Below are positions 3,942-42,069 of a DNA stretch of 42,069 nt, piece after piece. The notes beneath the pieces are model-generated. The model saw only the letters and a list, made by a program, of their open reading frames with translations. It searched no databases and was not told where the DNA came from. How positions within the stretch are numbered: the first letter of the stretch is position 1; each line of letters starts with the position of its first letter. Source of the DNA: an uncultured Bacilli bacterium (GTDB lineage: Bacteria; Bacillota_I; Bacilli_A; RF39; UBA660); NCBI GenBank assembly GCA_944332005.1, contig CALVJD010000039.1, forward strand, positions 1-42,069, given 5' to 3'. Made by a program: the position numbers and the translations under genes.

Positions 3942-6900
3942 TTAAAATAAACTTAATTGACTTGATTCATCAAGATGATCTAGTATTCCCATCATACGCA
4001 TTTTTTCGATAAGTGTTCCTGATACTTTTCCGCGTTTTTGCAAATCCTCAATACTTAAGAATTCCCCTTTTGCACGTTCATCGACGATTTTAAGAGCAAC
4101 CGTATCGCCTAATCCATCAATCGTACGGAATGGTGGAATCAATGTCTTATTATCTTCATCAACTTTAAAATATAAGGCATCGCTGCGATCTAAATCGATG
4201 TTACCAATACGAATCCCTCTAGCCGTTGCTTCCAAAGCTAGGCGCAAACATTCTAAGATACCATTCTCCTTATTGGTCGCATCGTACCCCTTATTGACAA
4301 TTTCGGTAATTCTTGCTTTTATCGCATCATATCCTTTGATCATCGTCTCAATATCAAAGTCTGTCGCCTTCGTCGAGAACCAAGAAGCATAAAACCAGCT
4401 TGGGTGATGAACTTTAAAATAAGCGATACGAAAAGCACTAATCACATATGCGGTCGCATGTGCCTTTGGGAACATATACTTGATCTTACGACAAGAATCG
4501 ATAAACCACTCTTCAATTCCTGCTTCCCGCATATCCGCCTCATGTTTTGCCCACGTTTCAGGATCTTTACTAGCTTTTCCTTTACGCACAAATTCCATTA
4601 TTTTAAATGCTTTAATTGGTTCCATTCCTTTATACATCAGGTAAACCATAATATCATCACGACACCCGATAACTTCTTTAAATGGTACGACTTTATTCTT
4701 GATCAGTTCTTGAGCATTTCCAAGCCATACATCAGTCCCATGAGAAAGTCCTGAAATCTTAATCAATTCAGCAAATGTTGTTGGCTTCGTTTCCGATACT
4801 AAACTGATCGTAAATGGTGTTCCAAATTCCGGAATACCTAAAGTACCCGTTTCATTCATAATTTGTTCTTTCGTAACCCCTAATGGTTCTGGCGATAAGA
4901 AAATTCCCATCGTCTCCTTATCATCGAGTGGAATTTTCATGATATCCATGTGCGATAAATCTTGAAGTAATCGAAGTTGCGTTGGATCAGAATGACCTAA
5001 AATATCCAATTTCAAAACATCTTGATCAATCGCATGATAATCGAAGTGAGTCGTACGCCAAGCACTTGTTGGATCATCAGCAGGATATTGATATGGTGTA
5101 AAATCAAAGACATCCATATATCCTGGGATAACGACAATTCCTCCAGGATGTTGTCCAGTAGTACGTTTGACTCCCGTACATCCCATTGCCAAGCGTTCGA
5201 TCTCTGCTGTACGCATCGTAATTCCTTTATCCTCGCAATAACCTCGAACATAACCAAATGCGGTCTTTTCTGCCACCGTTCCAATTGTACCAGCACGATA
5301 TACATTGTCGACGCCAAATAATACTTTGGTATATTCATGGGCATCTGCTTGATTCAAATCAGAAAAGTTAAGATCGATATCTGGTACTTTATCCGCATTG
5401 AAGCCTAAGAAAGTAGCGAATGGCATATCATTTCCATCTTTAATCATGTGAGCTCCACATTTTGGACAATTATAATCTGGTAGATCGAAGCCTGACGAGT
5501 ATTCGGATCCTAAAGCCTCTCCATCTAGTTCAAAAACACTATGTTTACATTCTGGACAACGATAGTGTGCAGGAAGTGGATTTACTTCCGTAATACCCAT
5601 CATCGTCGCCACAAAACTAGATCCGACGGAACCACGTGAACCAACCAAATATCCATCATCATTCGATTTCTTTACGAGCTTCTGAGCAATCAAATAAATA
5701 ACATCGAAGCCACCACCAATAATTCCTCCAAGATTCTTCTTCATCATCGCTTCGATCTCATCCGCATTAGATTTAGGATTGTTCGTTTTTAAATTTTCGC
5801 GAATGATGCGTTTTACTTCATCAAATCCCTTTAAAATCGCATCATGAAGGCGTCTAAAAGACTCTTTTTCAAAATCATCTTCCGAATAATTTTCTCGTTT
5901 CATTCCCTCTTTGATACTATTAAAAATCCCATCTCCATATAATTCTTTCGCAATTCTCTCTTCAATATTGTATGGAAGAGGATCACCATACCAATCGGCT
6001 GCTTTCGTATAAACAAGTTCCGTTACAGTCTCTACAGAGTGATCGATCTTTGGTGAGAACGGTACTCCCCCTGTTTCGATGATAACCTCGATAATATCGA
6101 CCATGTCAGCAATTTTATTTGGATTTTCAATCACCAATTCACGAGCAAGATTCGGATCTAAGAAATGAAAATCCTCCAACATTTCATCGGTTGTACGGAA
6201 ATGATTACTTGGTATTTCCTTGATATTGGAACGACTAAGTGGATGTCTACCACCACCTGGAACTTTCGCATTGACGATAATTTGGCGATAAATTTTATCT
6301 TCCCTACTAATATGGTGTACATCTCCAGTTGCAACAATCAATTTTCCAGCTTCTTTGGTAACACGAATAATTTTATTGACATGATCAAGTAATTCAGCAG
6401 GACTTCCAAAATCTCCCGTTTGTAAAAGATGATTGTAGCACTCTAGTGGTTGAACTTCCACATAATCATAGAAATTGATAATATTGGTTAATTCTTCATC
6501 ACTTTTACTTCTAGCTTCGATAAACACTTCACTTTCATAACAACCACTACCAATTAGTAATCCCTCGCGCAGTTCATCAATGACACTACGAAGAATACGT
6601 GGAGTTTTATATAAATACTTCGTATTTGCATAACTGACAATTTTAAATAAATTTTTAAGACCAATCTTATTCTTGGCCAAAATATTGACGTGATAAGAAC
6701 GACCGAACTTATGAATCTCATCTTTCGAAACCAACTTACCTAGATCGCAAATTCTCTCGATATTACGATCGACTAACTTCTTCATCATCTTGTGGTACAC
6801 AAGAGCCGTTCCTTCCGCATCGTAGTCACCACGGTGATGGGCATCTTCATCCCAAGGAACATCGTAACGTTTTACTAAAGCACTCAAACTATGACGTGAA

Positions 6901-22256: not shown

Positions 22257-22802
22257 ATGGATATTGTGATGTATGTTTTGATGATTTTTATACTTGTTTG
22301 TATATTTCTTATGTGGTACATCACGACATACAACAAGTATCAATCTTATATTATTCGTATCAACGAAGCAGAAGCAAATATTGATTCTACCCTTCGTAAG
22401 CGATTTGATTTATTAAATAAATCAATTGGCATTTTAAAAGTCAATTTAAAGACCGAAGATGAAATATTAGATAAAGTTGTAAAACTTCGTTCTAAAAAGC
22501 TAACCAACTTTGAACTCGATCGCGAACTATACGAAGTAATCAATGAATTTCATGTCGTAATGGAAAGTAATCCAGATCTAAAGACACATGAAGAATTAAT
22601 GAAAATTGTCATTAGTTTGAATGATACCGAAATTGAAATTTCTGCTTTACGCAAATATTATAATAATATTATTACAGATTATAACAAATTGATACGTACT
22701 TTTCCATCTAACGTGGTAGGAAAATTCGCAAAATACAAACTTCGTACTTACTTTGATGGAAAAAACATGGAAGATAATATCTATAACGATTTTAAATTAT
22801 AA
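22257..22802 (+). CDS. LemA family protein
   Basis: N-terminal TM; YN...ID..L.KRFDL; PDLK; YYN..I..YN..IRTFPSN. Confidence 0.9.
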   Translation: MDIVMYVLMIFILVCIFLMWYITTYNKYQSYIIRINEAEANIDSTLRKRFDLLNKSIGILKVNLKTEDEILDKVVKLRSKKLTNFELDRELYEVINEFHVVMESNPDLKTHEELMKIVISLNDTEIEISALRKYYNNIITDYNKLIRTFPSNVVGKFAKYKLRTYFDGKNMEDNIYNDFKL

Positions 22803-22835
22803 AAAACAAATAGCGAAAAGGCTATTTGTTTTTTC
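22801..22835. terminator. Bidirectional terminator
   Basis: AAAAAACAAATAGC / GCTATTTGTTTTTT inverted repeat. Confidence 0.75.
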
Positions 22836-22854
22836 TTATATCAATAGGAACACT

Positions 22855-23307
22855 TTAATTCAATAAGTAAATGGCAAAATTAAGATAGGCTGCAAAGATA
22901 AGCCATAAGAAATAAGGTATTTGAAGATAAGCAGCTTTCTTATCGACCTTATAAAATTCATAGATCATCTTTCCTACTAAAAGAATCAGTAATATAATCC
23001 ATAAAAATGATAATCCATAATTTTTGAAATTAAAGAAAAATAATGGCCATAATAAATTCACAGTTAATTGTAAAATATACCACCTCAGTCCTTCCGTTCC
23101 ATCTTTTGATTTCAAAATAAAATAACTAGAAATTCCCATTAATAAATATAAGATCGTCCATACAACTGGGAATACCCACTTTGGTGGAGCCAAAAATGGT
23201 TTGATCATTGCTCCATAAGATTCTACATCCAAGAAAAGCGCAATTAGACTTCCTAACACTGCAGGAATCATTGTACAAACAAGTAATGTTTTCCAATCAA
23301 TTTTCAT
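22855..23307 (-). CDS. tspO: TspO/MBR family protein
   Basis: KP..APPKWVFPVVWTILYLLMG, QL..N..W...FF, PYFLW..FAAYLN; start at ATG 23307 after GAGGTG. Confidence 0.92.
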   Translation of the reverse strand: MKIDWKTLLVCTMIPAVLGSLIALFLDVESYGAMIKPFLAPPKWVFPVVWTILYLLMGISSYFILKSKDGTEGLRWYILQLTVNLLWPLFFFNFKNYGLSFLWIILLILLVGKMIYEFYKVDKKAAYLQIPYFLWLIFAAYLNFAIYLLN

Positions 23308-23378
23308 TGTTTCACCTCTACTACTAACATATTTAAAAAATGAAAAAACATGCACAAAATAAAAGAAGAAAAGGTTGA

Positions 23379-24017
23379 TTATTTCTTCTTATTTTGTTTC
23401 TTATAATATTTACAGATTTCTTGTAATCCACAATGTTGACAATCAGGATTAGAAGCTTTACAGTAATACCTTCCAAATAATACTAATTGATGATGTAAGC
23501 GACTAAGTTTTTCTTTTGGAAATTTTTTATTTAACTTCTTTTCGATCGTAAGTACATCATCTGTTTCTTTGGCAAGTCCTAAACGTTTGCTGACACGTGA
23601 AACATGAGTATCTACCGCAATAACTGGTAAATCATATAAATTGCTGAGAACTACATTCGTCGTTTTTCTGCCAACTCCACTTAACGTCTCTAAAAATTCT
23701 CGATCATTGGGAACCATTCCATTGCTTTTTTCGATCAATGCACCAGCAATTTGTTTAATGTTGAGAGCCTTTTTATGAAACGTTCCAATTGGTCTAATAA
23801 TATTCATCAAATCCTCGATATCAGCATCTCTTAAAGCTTCTAAAGTAGGATATTTTTGAAATAAAATAGCGGTTACTTGATTGACTCTCTTATCAGTCGT
23901 TTGGGCACTGAGCATAACAGCAATCAATAATTCATAGTCTTTATGATAATTTAATTCACATCTTGGATTGGGAATCAATTGATCCCAGTAATCCATCATG
24001 TTATTCACTTCTGTCAT
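23379..24017 (-). CDS. nth: Endonuclease III
   Basis: LLIAVMLSAQTTD, HhH GVGRKT, AVDTHV, FeS motif C-x6-C-x2-C-x5-C. Confidence 0.96.
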   Translation of the reverse strand: MTEVNNMMDYWDQLIPNPRCELNYHKDYELLIAVMLSAQTTDKRVNQVTAILFQKYPTLEALRDADIEDLMNIIRPIGTFHKKALNIKQIAGALIEKSNGMVPNDREFLETLSGVGRKTTNVVLSNLYDLPVIAVDTHVSRVSKRLGLAKETDDVLTIEKKLNKKFPKEKLSRLHHQLVLFGRYYCKASNPDCQHCGLQEICKYYKKQNKKK

Positions 24018-41368: not shown

Positions 41369-41479
41369 TAAAAATGGCAACTTTCAGACCAATGTAAAGT
41401 TTTTGAAAATTCATTTAGCCCATTATGGGCTTATTTGCTATATGACAATGTGGATTATATTAAAATGTTTGTAGAGGTG

Positions 41480-41725
41480 ATGCAAATGGAATACACAAAT
41501 CGTATGAAAGGGTTAAGGGAAGATTGTGATTTAACCCAACAAGAAATCGCACAAGTATTAAATTGTAGTCAAACCTGTTACTCTAAATACGAATTAGGTC
41601 AAAGAGAAATCCCAATTCGCTTATTGTGTCTATTAGCTGATTTTTATGGAGTAAGTACTGATTATTTATTAGGGCGAACTAATGAAAAGAAAAGCAAAAA
41701 AATAAAAATAAAAACGCAAGTGTAA
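41480..41725 (+). CDS. XRE-family helix-turn-helix regulator
   Basis: RMKGLRED.DLTQ.EIA..L..SQ..YSKYE.G.REIP...LADFYGVSTDYLLGRT; GAGGTG RBS; start at ATG 41480 or 41486. Confidence 0.92.
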   Translation: MQMEYTNRMKGLREDCDLTQQEIAQVLNCSQTCYSKYELGQREIPIRLLCLLADFYGVSTDYLLGRTNEKKSKKIKIKTQV

Positions 41726-41743
41726 AAACTTGTGTTTTTTATT
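41707..41743. terminator. Hairpin between the convergent HTH gene and the lectin-like gene
   Basis: AATAAAAACGCAAGT / ACTTGTGTTTTTTATT imperfect inverted repeat; overlaps the HTH stop and starts 10 nt past the minus-strand stop. Confidence 0.6.
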
Positions 41744-41753
41744 CAAATATCAT

Positions 41754-42068
41754 TTAGGGTGTAAGCACGAGGCGAAACGAAGCGTAGCTGTCAGACGTCC
41801 CAGTGTAGCGAAGGAAGTAGAACTGGCCTGCGAGTACACCATTGTTGCGATCGCCGCCTCGATGAAACCAAGGATAGGACGAGTGCACAAAAAGAGAAGC
41901 GTCGGAATACCACTGATTATGTGGTCTTGACGTTCCATCACTATCTGCAAAGGTCACAAATGGTCCCATCTCTCCCGTCGCATCTCCTAAAATGCGATTT
42001 TGGTAAGTTGTTTGAGTACTATTGCTTAAATAAACATCAAAATATTTACTATCGTAATTTTGTATATT
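41754..42068 (-). CDS. 3' end of a truncated gene with CLec/FGE-like C-terminal domain (probable DGR target protein)
   Basis: Frame open to the window edge: NIQNYDSKYFDVY...RILGDATGEMGPF...WYSD...PWFHRGG....G..AG.F......G......SFRLVLTP*. Confidence 0.8.
   Translation of the reverse strand, partial: NIQNYDSKYFDVYLSNSTQTTYQNRILGDATGEMGPFVTFADSDGTSRPHNQWYSDASLFVHSSYPWFHRGGDRNNGVLAGQFYFLRYTGTSDSYASFRLVLTP
41757..41912 (-). other. Candidate DGR variable region (VR)
   Basis: Hand count: 23/156 A (15%) vs 40/99 (40%) in the 33 codons at the window edge; 39 of 52 codons end in C/T; constant RGG/AG/FR scaffold. Confidence 0.65.
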
Positions 42069-42069
42069 G

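Follow-up and report, generated by a model that had tools for sequence, protein, structure and literature searches.

The last 52 codons of a gene that runs off the end of the window are very probably a variable region (VR) written by a diversity-generating retroelement (DGR). The window is the whole stretch of DNA analysed here (42,069 nt) and represents contig C39 of the MAG G000, which comprises 1,135,472 nt (1.135 Mb) in 83 contigs and is 89.9% complete with a contamination estimate of 4.69%. According to the proposed mechanism, the RNA of a template (TR) would be copied by reverse transcription, with bases inserted at random wherever the template has an adenine. The resulting cDNA would then replace the VR, resetting the non-adenine positions to the template and turning the adenine positions, mostly located in AAY codons, into NNY. 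One template would have served at least nine, and probably 11, scattered paralogs, whose products would combine an N-terminal membrane anchor with a C-terminal CLec/FGE-like domain displaying the varied residues. Apart from DGRs, no prokaryotic system for the targeted hypermutation of proteins is known to us.

An earlier note made from the letters of the window had proposed a DGR variable region in a C-terminal domain of this fold, with the retroelement outside the window. This proposal is borne out by a scaffold shared between the paralogs, by the match of the variable sites to TR adenines of relatives, by reverse transcriptase (RT), Avd and MutS-like genes on another contig and by the similarity of a paralog model to the DGR variable protein TaqVP.

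The gene at the end of the window

The gene is a minus-strand open reading frame at 41754-42068 with 104 codons and a stop codon. Its reading frame stays open up to the window edge, and the encoded protein ends in WYSDASLFVHSSYPWFHRGGDRNNGVLAGQFYFLRYTGTSDSYASFRLVLTP before the stop. Its neighbours are YabP, SpoVG, Veg, a YabG peptidase and an XRE-type HTH gene. The features at this end of the window are:

41754..42068, minus strand: 3' part of one of 14 paralogous genes, from the list of open reading frames; the 5' part lies beyond the window and the contig
41757..41912, minus strand: VR of 52 codons, beginning at WY and extending to the last codon, from the 11-copy codon table and the 9-copy column count
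41757..41780, minus strand: G+C-rich 3' end of the VR with the codons S-F-R-L-V-L-T-P, from the paralog alignment and the TR/VR comparison of the relative G011
41706..41744, unstranded: A/U-rich hairpin with U tails in the interval between the target gene and the XRE gene, from RNA folding
41435-41725, plus strand: small XRE-type HTH gene (HTH_3, E 2.4e-12), from a profile match; it converges on the target gene

The composition of the gene changes at the VR, and the counts given in the earlier note were reproduced exactly. On the coding strand, adenine accounts for 23/156 positions in the last 52 codons (41757-41912) versus 40/99 in the edge-most 33 codons, and 39/52 of the last codons end in C or T (third positions: C 21, T 18, G 9, A 4). 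The G+C content is 0.54 in the last 52 codons versus 0.30 in the edge-most 33; the genome has a G+C content of 33%, and only 62 of its 21,625 segments of 156 nt (step 52) reach a G+C content of at least 0.54. Runs of NNY codons between fixed residues are seen in the codon table as they had been described. Neither an RT nor a TR is present in the window, as had also been stated: the sole RVT_1 match of the genome is found on contig C55, and the VR query matches contig C39 solely at itself.

The hairpin that had been noticed about 10 nt 3' of the stop codon is present at about 41706-41744, starting approximately 10-13 nt past the stop. It folds with an MFE of -9.2 kcal/mol (z -2.8), and 4/200 shuffles fold equally well. 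A strict terminator scan does not list the hairpin. Since it is A/U-rich, has a U tail and is located between convergent genes, it reads as a bidirectional terminator, and it is probably an ordinary one; it is also a candidate for a role in the recognition of DGR targets. The terminator hairpin is common to the XRE gene (41435-41725) and the target gene. Several other paralogs have their own, different inverted repeats 3' of the stop codon, as judged by eye. The XRE-type gene at 41435-41725 in addition gives a weak MqsA-antitoxin-like match (E 0.0017, under the cut-off). The 3' end of the VR at 41757..41780 is likely to represent the initiation-of-mutagenic-homing (IMH) region.

The paralog family

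A 340-nt query detected 14 places in G000 with a nucleotide identity of 73-89%, each of them being the 3' end of an open reading frame. Full-length paralogs encode approximately 465 amino acids (466-470 aa counted from the start codon). With 14 copies of about 1.4 kb, about 1.7% of the ~1.1-Mb genome is occupied by a paralog family with DGR-type tips. Among 120 sampled genera of this bacterial family (G000 excluded), the gene family was found in 54. Relatives often carry at least 12 family matches per genome, with up to 13 candidates scored.

Contig pairs of G000 overlap by exactly 127 nt (the C15 end with the C56 start and 18 other pairs), which places the breaks of the assembly graph at repeats. 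One family copy is split in this way between C15:9589-10702 and C56:1-405, which are joined by such a 127-nt overlap. At the relevant ends of C55 and C39, no contig-end overlaps (k = 127) were found that would extend these contigs.

The 14 copies could be an artefact of assembly or binning, representing strain variation at a single locus or a few loci, or stemming from misbinned contigs. The contamination estimate of 4.69% would be in line with this, as would the eight of 14 copies that reach contig ends and the almost identical VRs of C1 and C14. We nevertheless regard an artefact as highly improbable, because similarity between the copies stops at the stop codon and the downstream sequences are unrelated, so that the flank is a different one at every copy. 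Of the six complete copies, five are located within contigs of 29-52 kb (C27, C36, C38, C35) or are complete in another context with a flank on either side, and about 15-20% of the nucleotides differ between gene bodies. Furthermore, relatives have many copies per genome too, and the scaffold pattern of the VR was found 11 times in G000 and not once in 200 other genera.

The encoded protein

The N-terminus of the window copy lies beyond the contig, and N-terminal features were read from full-length paralogs. These have a hydrophobic anchor at the N-terminus, followed by the conserved segment AVTTLYEA.EVGYDN...DVQGALDELY, a middle part rich in beta structure and the C-terminal domain. Their N-termini start with MK(S/K).., followed by about 20 hydrophobic residues and then AVTTLYEA.EVGYDN, which is a plain signal-anchor. 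Pfam searches of the full-length paralogs detected no N_methyl/prepilin domain at E <= 0.1. The suggestion that the target might be a prepilin-type pilus adhesin has thus to be given up.

For the C-terminal part, Pfam FGE-sulfatase (PF03781) was matched below threshold (E 0.038, 14.1 bits versus a cut-off of 23.3, residues 249-357), and a search of the paralog protein against NCBIfam gave no family. An AlphaFold model of the C27 paralog (32-row alignment) is of mediocre quality with a mean pLDDT of 63.6 and values <50 in the VR. Its best PDB match is TaqVP (5vf4; Foldseek E 4.3e-3, prob 0.96-0.98), a DGR variable protein from Thermus aquaticus with a CLec/FGE-like fold. VIA-align superimposed the model on TaqVP with Z 9.3 over 230 residues (rmsd 4.3), and the next matches were FGE (2q17, Z 4.0) and Mtd (Z 3.4-3.7; 1yu3 Z 3.7). 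The identity between TaqVP and the paralog model is 14-15%, and the match covers model residues 83-447; the VR is modelled with a pLDDT <50. A second model of the C-terminal 277 residues alone was unusable (mean pLDDT 42.1), and 5vf4 was the sole match of a profile-sequence search of the PDB (E 0.2). Together these comparisons provide moderate evidence for a predicted CLec/FGE-like fold of the C-terminal domain, in line with the fold that had been proposed from the window. The varied residues would probably form a ligand- or surface-binding site. In the ESM Atlas, the closest clusters are annotated as 'hypothetical protein' and come from Bacillota and phages, which is a lead.

Variable regions share a common scaffold

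We compared the last 156 nt of a core set of nine copies (C39, C27, C43, C35, C37, C26, C9, C15 and C17). This comparison revealed 119 fixed columns (identical in at least 8/9 copies) and 37 variable ones, the latter distributed over codon positions 1/2/3 as 14/14/9. Adenine is found in at least one copy in 31/37 variable columns and is the commonest base in these columns (111/333). Eleven of the fixed columns are A. At the 108 fixed non-A sites, the core copies have between 0 and 4 mismatches each (the window copy has 1), amounting to 11 mismatches in 972 sites. The 11-copy codon table shows that hypervariable codons take many values at positions 1-2 and keep the third base (NNT or NNC).

Among codons for residues shared by two copies, the third position differs in 0.12 of comparisons in the VR versus 0.30 in the gene body. 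The paralogs had therefore already diverged when the scaffold of the VR was reset from one shared source, and the variable sites were not reset. As far as these alignments tell, gene conversion or selection alone does not yield a homogeneous scaffold interspersed with variable sites.

One observation runs counter to the simplest expectation for a DGR, namely that constant adenines are found at several third positions: CGA in 11/11 copies, GTA in 10/11 and GCA in 10/11 (the codon GCA itself in 7/11). Third positions of CCA and ACA, unlike those of CGA and GTA, vary freely among the copies. Judging from the codon table, protein-level selection cannot explain the constant third-position A in CGA, GTA and GCA; site-dependent misincorporation may be the putative cause of these synonymous adenines.

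The remaining copies depart from the scaffold to different degrees. C56, with 8 non-A mismatches located mostly at the 3' end, and C36, with 16, are intermediate, and the copies on C1, C14 and C38 (at 28.9k) have 26-38 non-A mismatches and have drifted towards the A+T-rich composition of the genome. The drift of four VRs is as expected of targets that no longer receive template information. The drifted VRs, with 16-38 non-A mismatches, are located at C36:13280-13456, C1:3232-3398, C14:87-262 and C38:28782-29109.

Templates of homologous cassettes in relatives

G011, a genome from the same bacterial family and another genus, contains a cassette with the order target-TR-MutS-like-Avd-RT, in which the TR is a non-coding copy of the last ~160 nt of the homologue. 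All substitutions between TR and VR within a 158-nt ungapped block are located at TR adenines (9/9), and the whole local alignment has 10/11 at these positions. Identity between TR and VR stops at the place equivalent to the 3' end of the VR. Among related loci from named genomes, an RT was detected in the flank of 5/77, and in all five an asparagine-codon-rich, stop-interrupted non-coding TR follows the target. A 21-nt word of the G011 TR was furthermore found in 14 metagenome contigs, 13 of which contain an asparagine-codon-rich non-coding TR-like stretch; the contig L146, matched by the same word, reads as coding just upstream. The TR-like stretches on these 14 metagenome contigs were considered as template of the G000 scaffold and rejected, since they are those of other species and have many non-A mismatches.

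Six heterologous TRs of the same target family, taken from six other genomes or contigs, were aligned to the G000 VR. Adenine is present at 21-26 of 35-36 variable columns versus 12-15 of 110-114 fixed columns. The association between variable columns and TR adenines is highly significant for each TR (Fisher p 2.5e-8 to 3.8e-12), the six TRs being interrelated and therefore not six independent tests.

The pattern in G000 could in principle have arisen by ordinary evolution of paralogs, with diversifying selection acting on binding residues and gene conversion homogenising the remainder, and no retroelement involved. Gene conversion is able to homogenise paralogs, binding loops evolve fast, and there is no TR in hand. 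Gene conversion would, however, homogenise the variable sites as well, and variation at codon positions 1-2 combined with a third position that stays C or T is the opposite of what neutral or selective codon evolution produces. This explanation also has to accommodate a VR with a G+C content of 0.54 in a 33% genome, variable sites that match the TR adenines of relatives and homologous genes that are part of canonical DGR cassettes. We consider its probability to be very small.

Within G011 (L120-L134), adenine-only differences are found solely in the cassette-linked VR. In the 15 remote copies of this genome, mismatches number 7-21 at adenines and 7-29 at the other bases, which forms a gradient from recently written to decayed.

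A reverse transcriptase on contig C55 and a second TR/VR pair

The only RVT_1 match in G000 (55 bits, above the cut-off) is located on contig C55, where the minus strand encodes, in this order, a MutS domain I ORF truncated at the end of the contig, an Avd-like ORF and an RT of 375 amino acids, followed by a TR. The RT contains the sequence IGNMSSQ, an instance of the I/LGxxxSQ motif that we take to be the mark of DGR RTs. The Avd-like ORF matches bAvd with an E of 1.2e-9 (39.1 bits versus a cut-off of 40) and DivGenRetAVD with an E of 2.5e-11, under the cut-off. The features of this cassette and its target are:

G000:C55:6549-6893, minus strand: MutS_I ORF 5' of avd (20.9 bits, cut-off 20.6), cut by the contig end
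G000:C55:~4825-4925, minus strand: TR of the second pair, 3' of the RT; it pairs with the C38 VR
G000:C38:22491-22590, minus strand: VR of the second pair, in gene 22415-23533; 17/19 substitutions at adenines

The C38 VR is one codon (3 nt) longer than the C55 TR, the difference being located within an AAC-repeat stretch. The C38 target (22415-23533) has the same N-terminal anchor module as the paralog family and differs in its C-terminus, which is a GVRP-type domain. An equivalent cassette, target-MSL-Avd-RT-TR, is present in G001, a genome of the same genus, with 9/10 substitutions at A. The gene order target-MSL-Avd-RT-TR seen in G001, and apparently in G000, differs from target-TR-MSL-Avd-RT in G011.

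The MutS-like ORF of C55 belongs to the class of accessory genes that Wu et al. (2018) describe as MSL, with equivalent ORFs in G011 and G001. Equivalents of this ORF were located at L015:381-761 and L038:700-1140. In the part of the survey that covers accessory genes, MSL is found in 16/372 DGRs, always together with avd (Wu et al., 2018, PMC5758913), and the DGRs with MSL described there, for instance in Legionella, have MSL and Avd beside the RT, as is the case on C55.

The DNA adjacent to the RT on C55 was also considered as template for the VR of the edge gene and was rejected: the best match has 11 nt (E 0.084), and the TR fits C38:22491-22590. G000 thus has a working-looking DGR whose linked template is, judged by its sequence, not that of the edge-gene family. 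The earlier expectation of a DGR just outside the window or acting in trans agrees in part with these findings: the retroelement is found outside the window, with RT, Avd and MutS-like genes on C55, but its TR serves the C38 target.

Search for the cognate template and comparison of alleles

A TR-like copy was searched for in G000 with blastn up to E 10, which gave only the 14 coding copies and short chance matches. Exact scaffold words occur in G000 only in family copies and as single chance matches in C83, C23 and C81; the match in C83 is located in unrelated sequence. The scaffold pattern (<=2 mismatches) is found 11 times in G000, and it is found neither in 200 other genomes of the bacterial family, one each from ~200 genera, nor in metagenome_contigs or viral_contigs. 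For the family copy of G001, a genome of the same genus, no TR was found either. The check that had been suggested, for a TR of ~150 nt differing at A and located beside an RT and avd, was likewise negative in G000, where the TR on C55 fits C38. The G000 bin holds no contig <2,562 nt. This lower size bound, the breaks at repeats with k = 127 and the location of 8/14 copies at contig ends mean that a short TR contig could be missing. In practical terms, short-read assemblies are broken by VR paralogs, and the TR can drop out of the bin.

Alleles were compared between runs on the basis of Logan contigs from X1, X2 and X3, which are labelled chicken gut and synthetic metagenome. Flank-anchored contigs of the three runs show 0 differences to the window across the VR, in a comparison in which contigs hide minor variants and the runs may share a source and not be independent samples. 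There is no turnover of the dominant allele at the edge-gene VR among X1, X2 and X3. For X5, no flank-anchored contig was obtained, and the other differences among run contigs derive from paralogs. The earlier statement that the gene 'is being hypermutated' was not confirmed by these contigs, which carry an identical allele in three runs and in which minor variants are hidden.

These results leave room for a second reading, in which a DGR wrote the VRs not long ago and the cognate TR or the whole cassette has since been lost, leaving the paralogs as ordinary genes bound to decay. It would fit the lack of a TR in G000 and in G001, the service of the sole RT-linked TR to another target, the identical allele in three runs and the clear decay of the copies on C36, C1, C14 and C38, with 16-38 non-A scaffold mismatches; the remote copies of G011 likewise have 7-29 non-A mismatches. 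The core nine VRs, however, have only 11/972 mismatches, compared to 30% in the gene bodies at comparable third positions, and any loss of the TR would therefore have to be very recent. Moreover, the MAG is without ~10% of the marker content and all contigs <2,562 nt, and a contig carrying the TR could be missing. Taking both sides into account, we regard a past loss of the template as unlikely.

In the preferred reading, VRs that a DGR continues to write, the cognate TR would be present in the organism and located outside the assembly. It would be used by the RT encoded on C55 or by a second, unassembled RT, and diversification would still be active.

Relation to known DGR systems

The DGR of Treponema denticola (TvpA) resembles the system in G000 in being chromosomal and non-phage, and one TR is thought to serve scattered CLec-fold surface proteins there. 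G000 differs from it in having 9-11 VRs with a common scaffold (14 copies) in a genome of ~1.1-1.3 Mb. TvpA is a lipoprotein, whereas the G000 protein has an N-terminal membrane anchor, and the TR is not in hand for G000. In the canonical DGR mechanism known from Bordetella phage BPP-1, adenine-specific changes are transferred from the TR into a C-terminal VR. Mtd of BPP-1 and the G000 system share the C-terminal VR, adenine-specific differences between TR and VR, Avd, a VR that is rich in G+C at its 3' end and a hairpin that follows it. Unlike BPP-1, the system in G000 is cellular, has many remote targets and includes a MutS-like accessory gene, and the structural match to Mtd is weak (Z 3.4-3.7).

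Both the fraction of the genome (~1.7%) and the expansion in many genera of small-genome gut Bacilli point to variable surface binding as a core of the lifestyle. The organisms that carry the family are uncultured and probably host- or partner-dependent. A parallel role has been proposed for DGR variation in CPR bacteria.

Multiple and remote DGR targets, action in trans and the MSL accessory gene have already been described. As read from the alignments, distinctive here are 9-11 apparently template-homogenised remote VRs in a ~1.1-Mb genome together with the spread of the family. The largest count in the part of the 2018 survey dealing with non-adjacent targets is seven, in Treponema (Wu et al., 2018, PMC5758913); if one TR serves 9-11 targets in G000, this maximum, as given in that part, would be exceeded. 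According to the description of its method, the metagenome survey of Roux et al. (2021, PMC8144416) misses remote targets by design. For Thiohalocapsa PB-PSB1, TRs that act in trans have been documented, as have VRs for which the assembly contains no TR (PMC10907252). That organism differs from G000 in phylum, target family and genome size, and diversification was measured in populations there (PMC10907252). A description of this protein family, or of this lineage with DGRs, was not found in the literature; supplementary tables of the surveys may list such loci.

A conserved leader upstream of paralogs and other genes

Twelve genes of G000 have a leader of ~60 nt directly 5' of the start codon, located outside the window:

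L003:358-417 (G000:C27:22184-22243): leader; further copies on C1, C3, C15, C26, C28, C29, C32, C36, C38 (twice) and C43

The leader consists of a run of 6-11 G (with one A inside in one copy), TATTATATA, a CC(C/T)CTC tract and a run of T, in this order, and ends with the ribosome-binding site. In 3/3 leaders folded, pairing between the G run and the pyrimidine tract gives a hairpin resembling a terminator or attenuator (z -3.2, -1.8 and -0.6). A search of four loci including conserved leaders against Rfam gave nothing relevant. Judging from its sequence, the leader could be a candidate phase-variable attenuator, that is, a slipped-strand switch.

A combined reading would have, in a gut bacterium with a reduced genome of about 1.1-1.3 Mb, at least 9-11 scattered membrane-anchored receptor genes rewritten in trans by one TR, with phase variation of the leader acting jointly, resulting in a widespread two-layer system of surface variation. 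We put this forward tentatively and hold it to be unlikely. If it is true, slipped-strand changes in the G runs of the leaders could switch single paralogs on and off, and the presence of the family in 54/120 sampled genera would make the two-layer system widespread.

The leader is found upstream of family copies, of the GVRP-type target and of a 220-aa protein without a VR. The latter is encoded at G000:C28:261-923 and C32:8730-9191, where the leader and the N-terminal anchor module are joined to an unrelated C-terminus. Since the leader/anchor module heads at least three protein families, it seems to be a shared export/anchor cassette.
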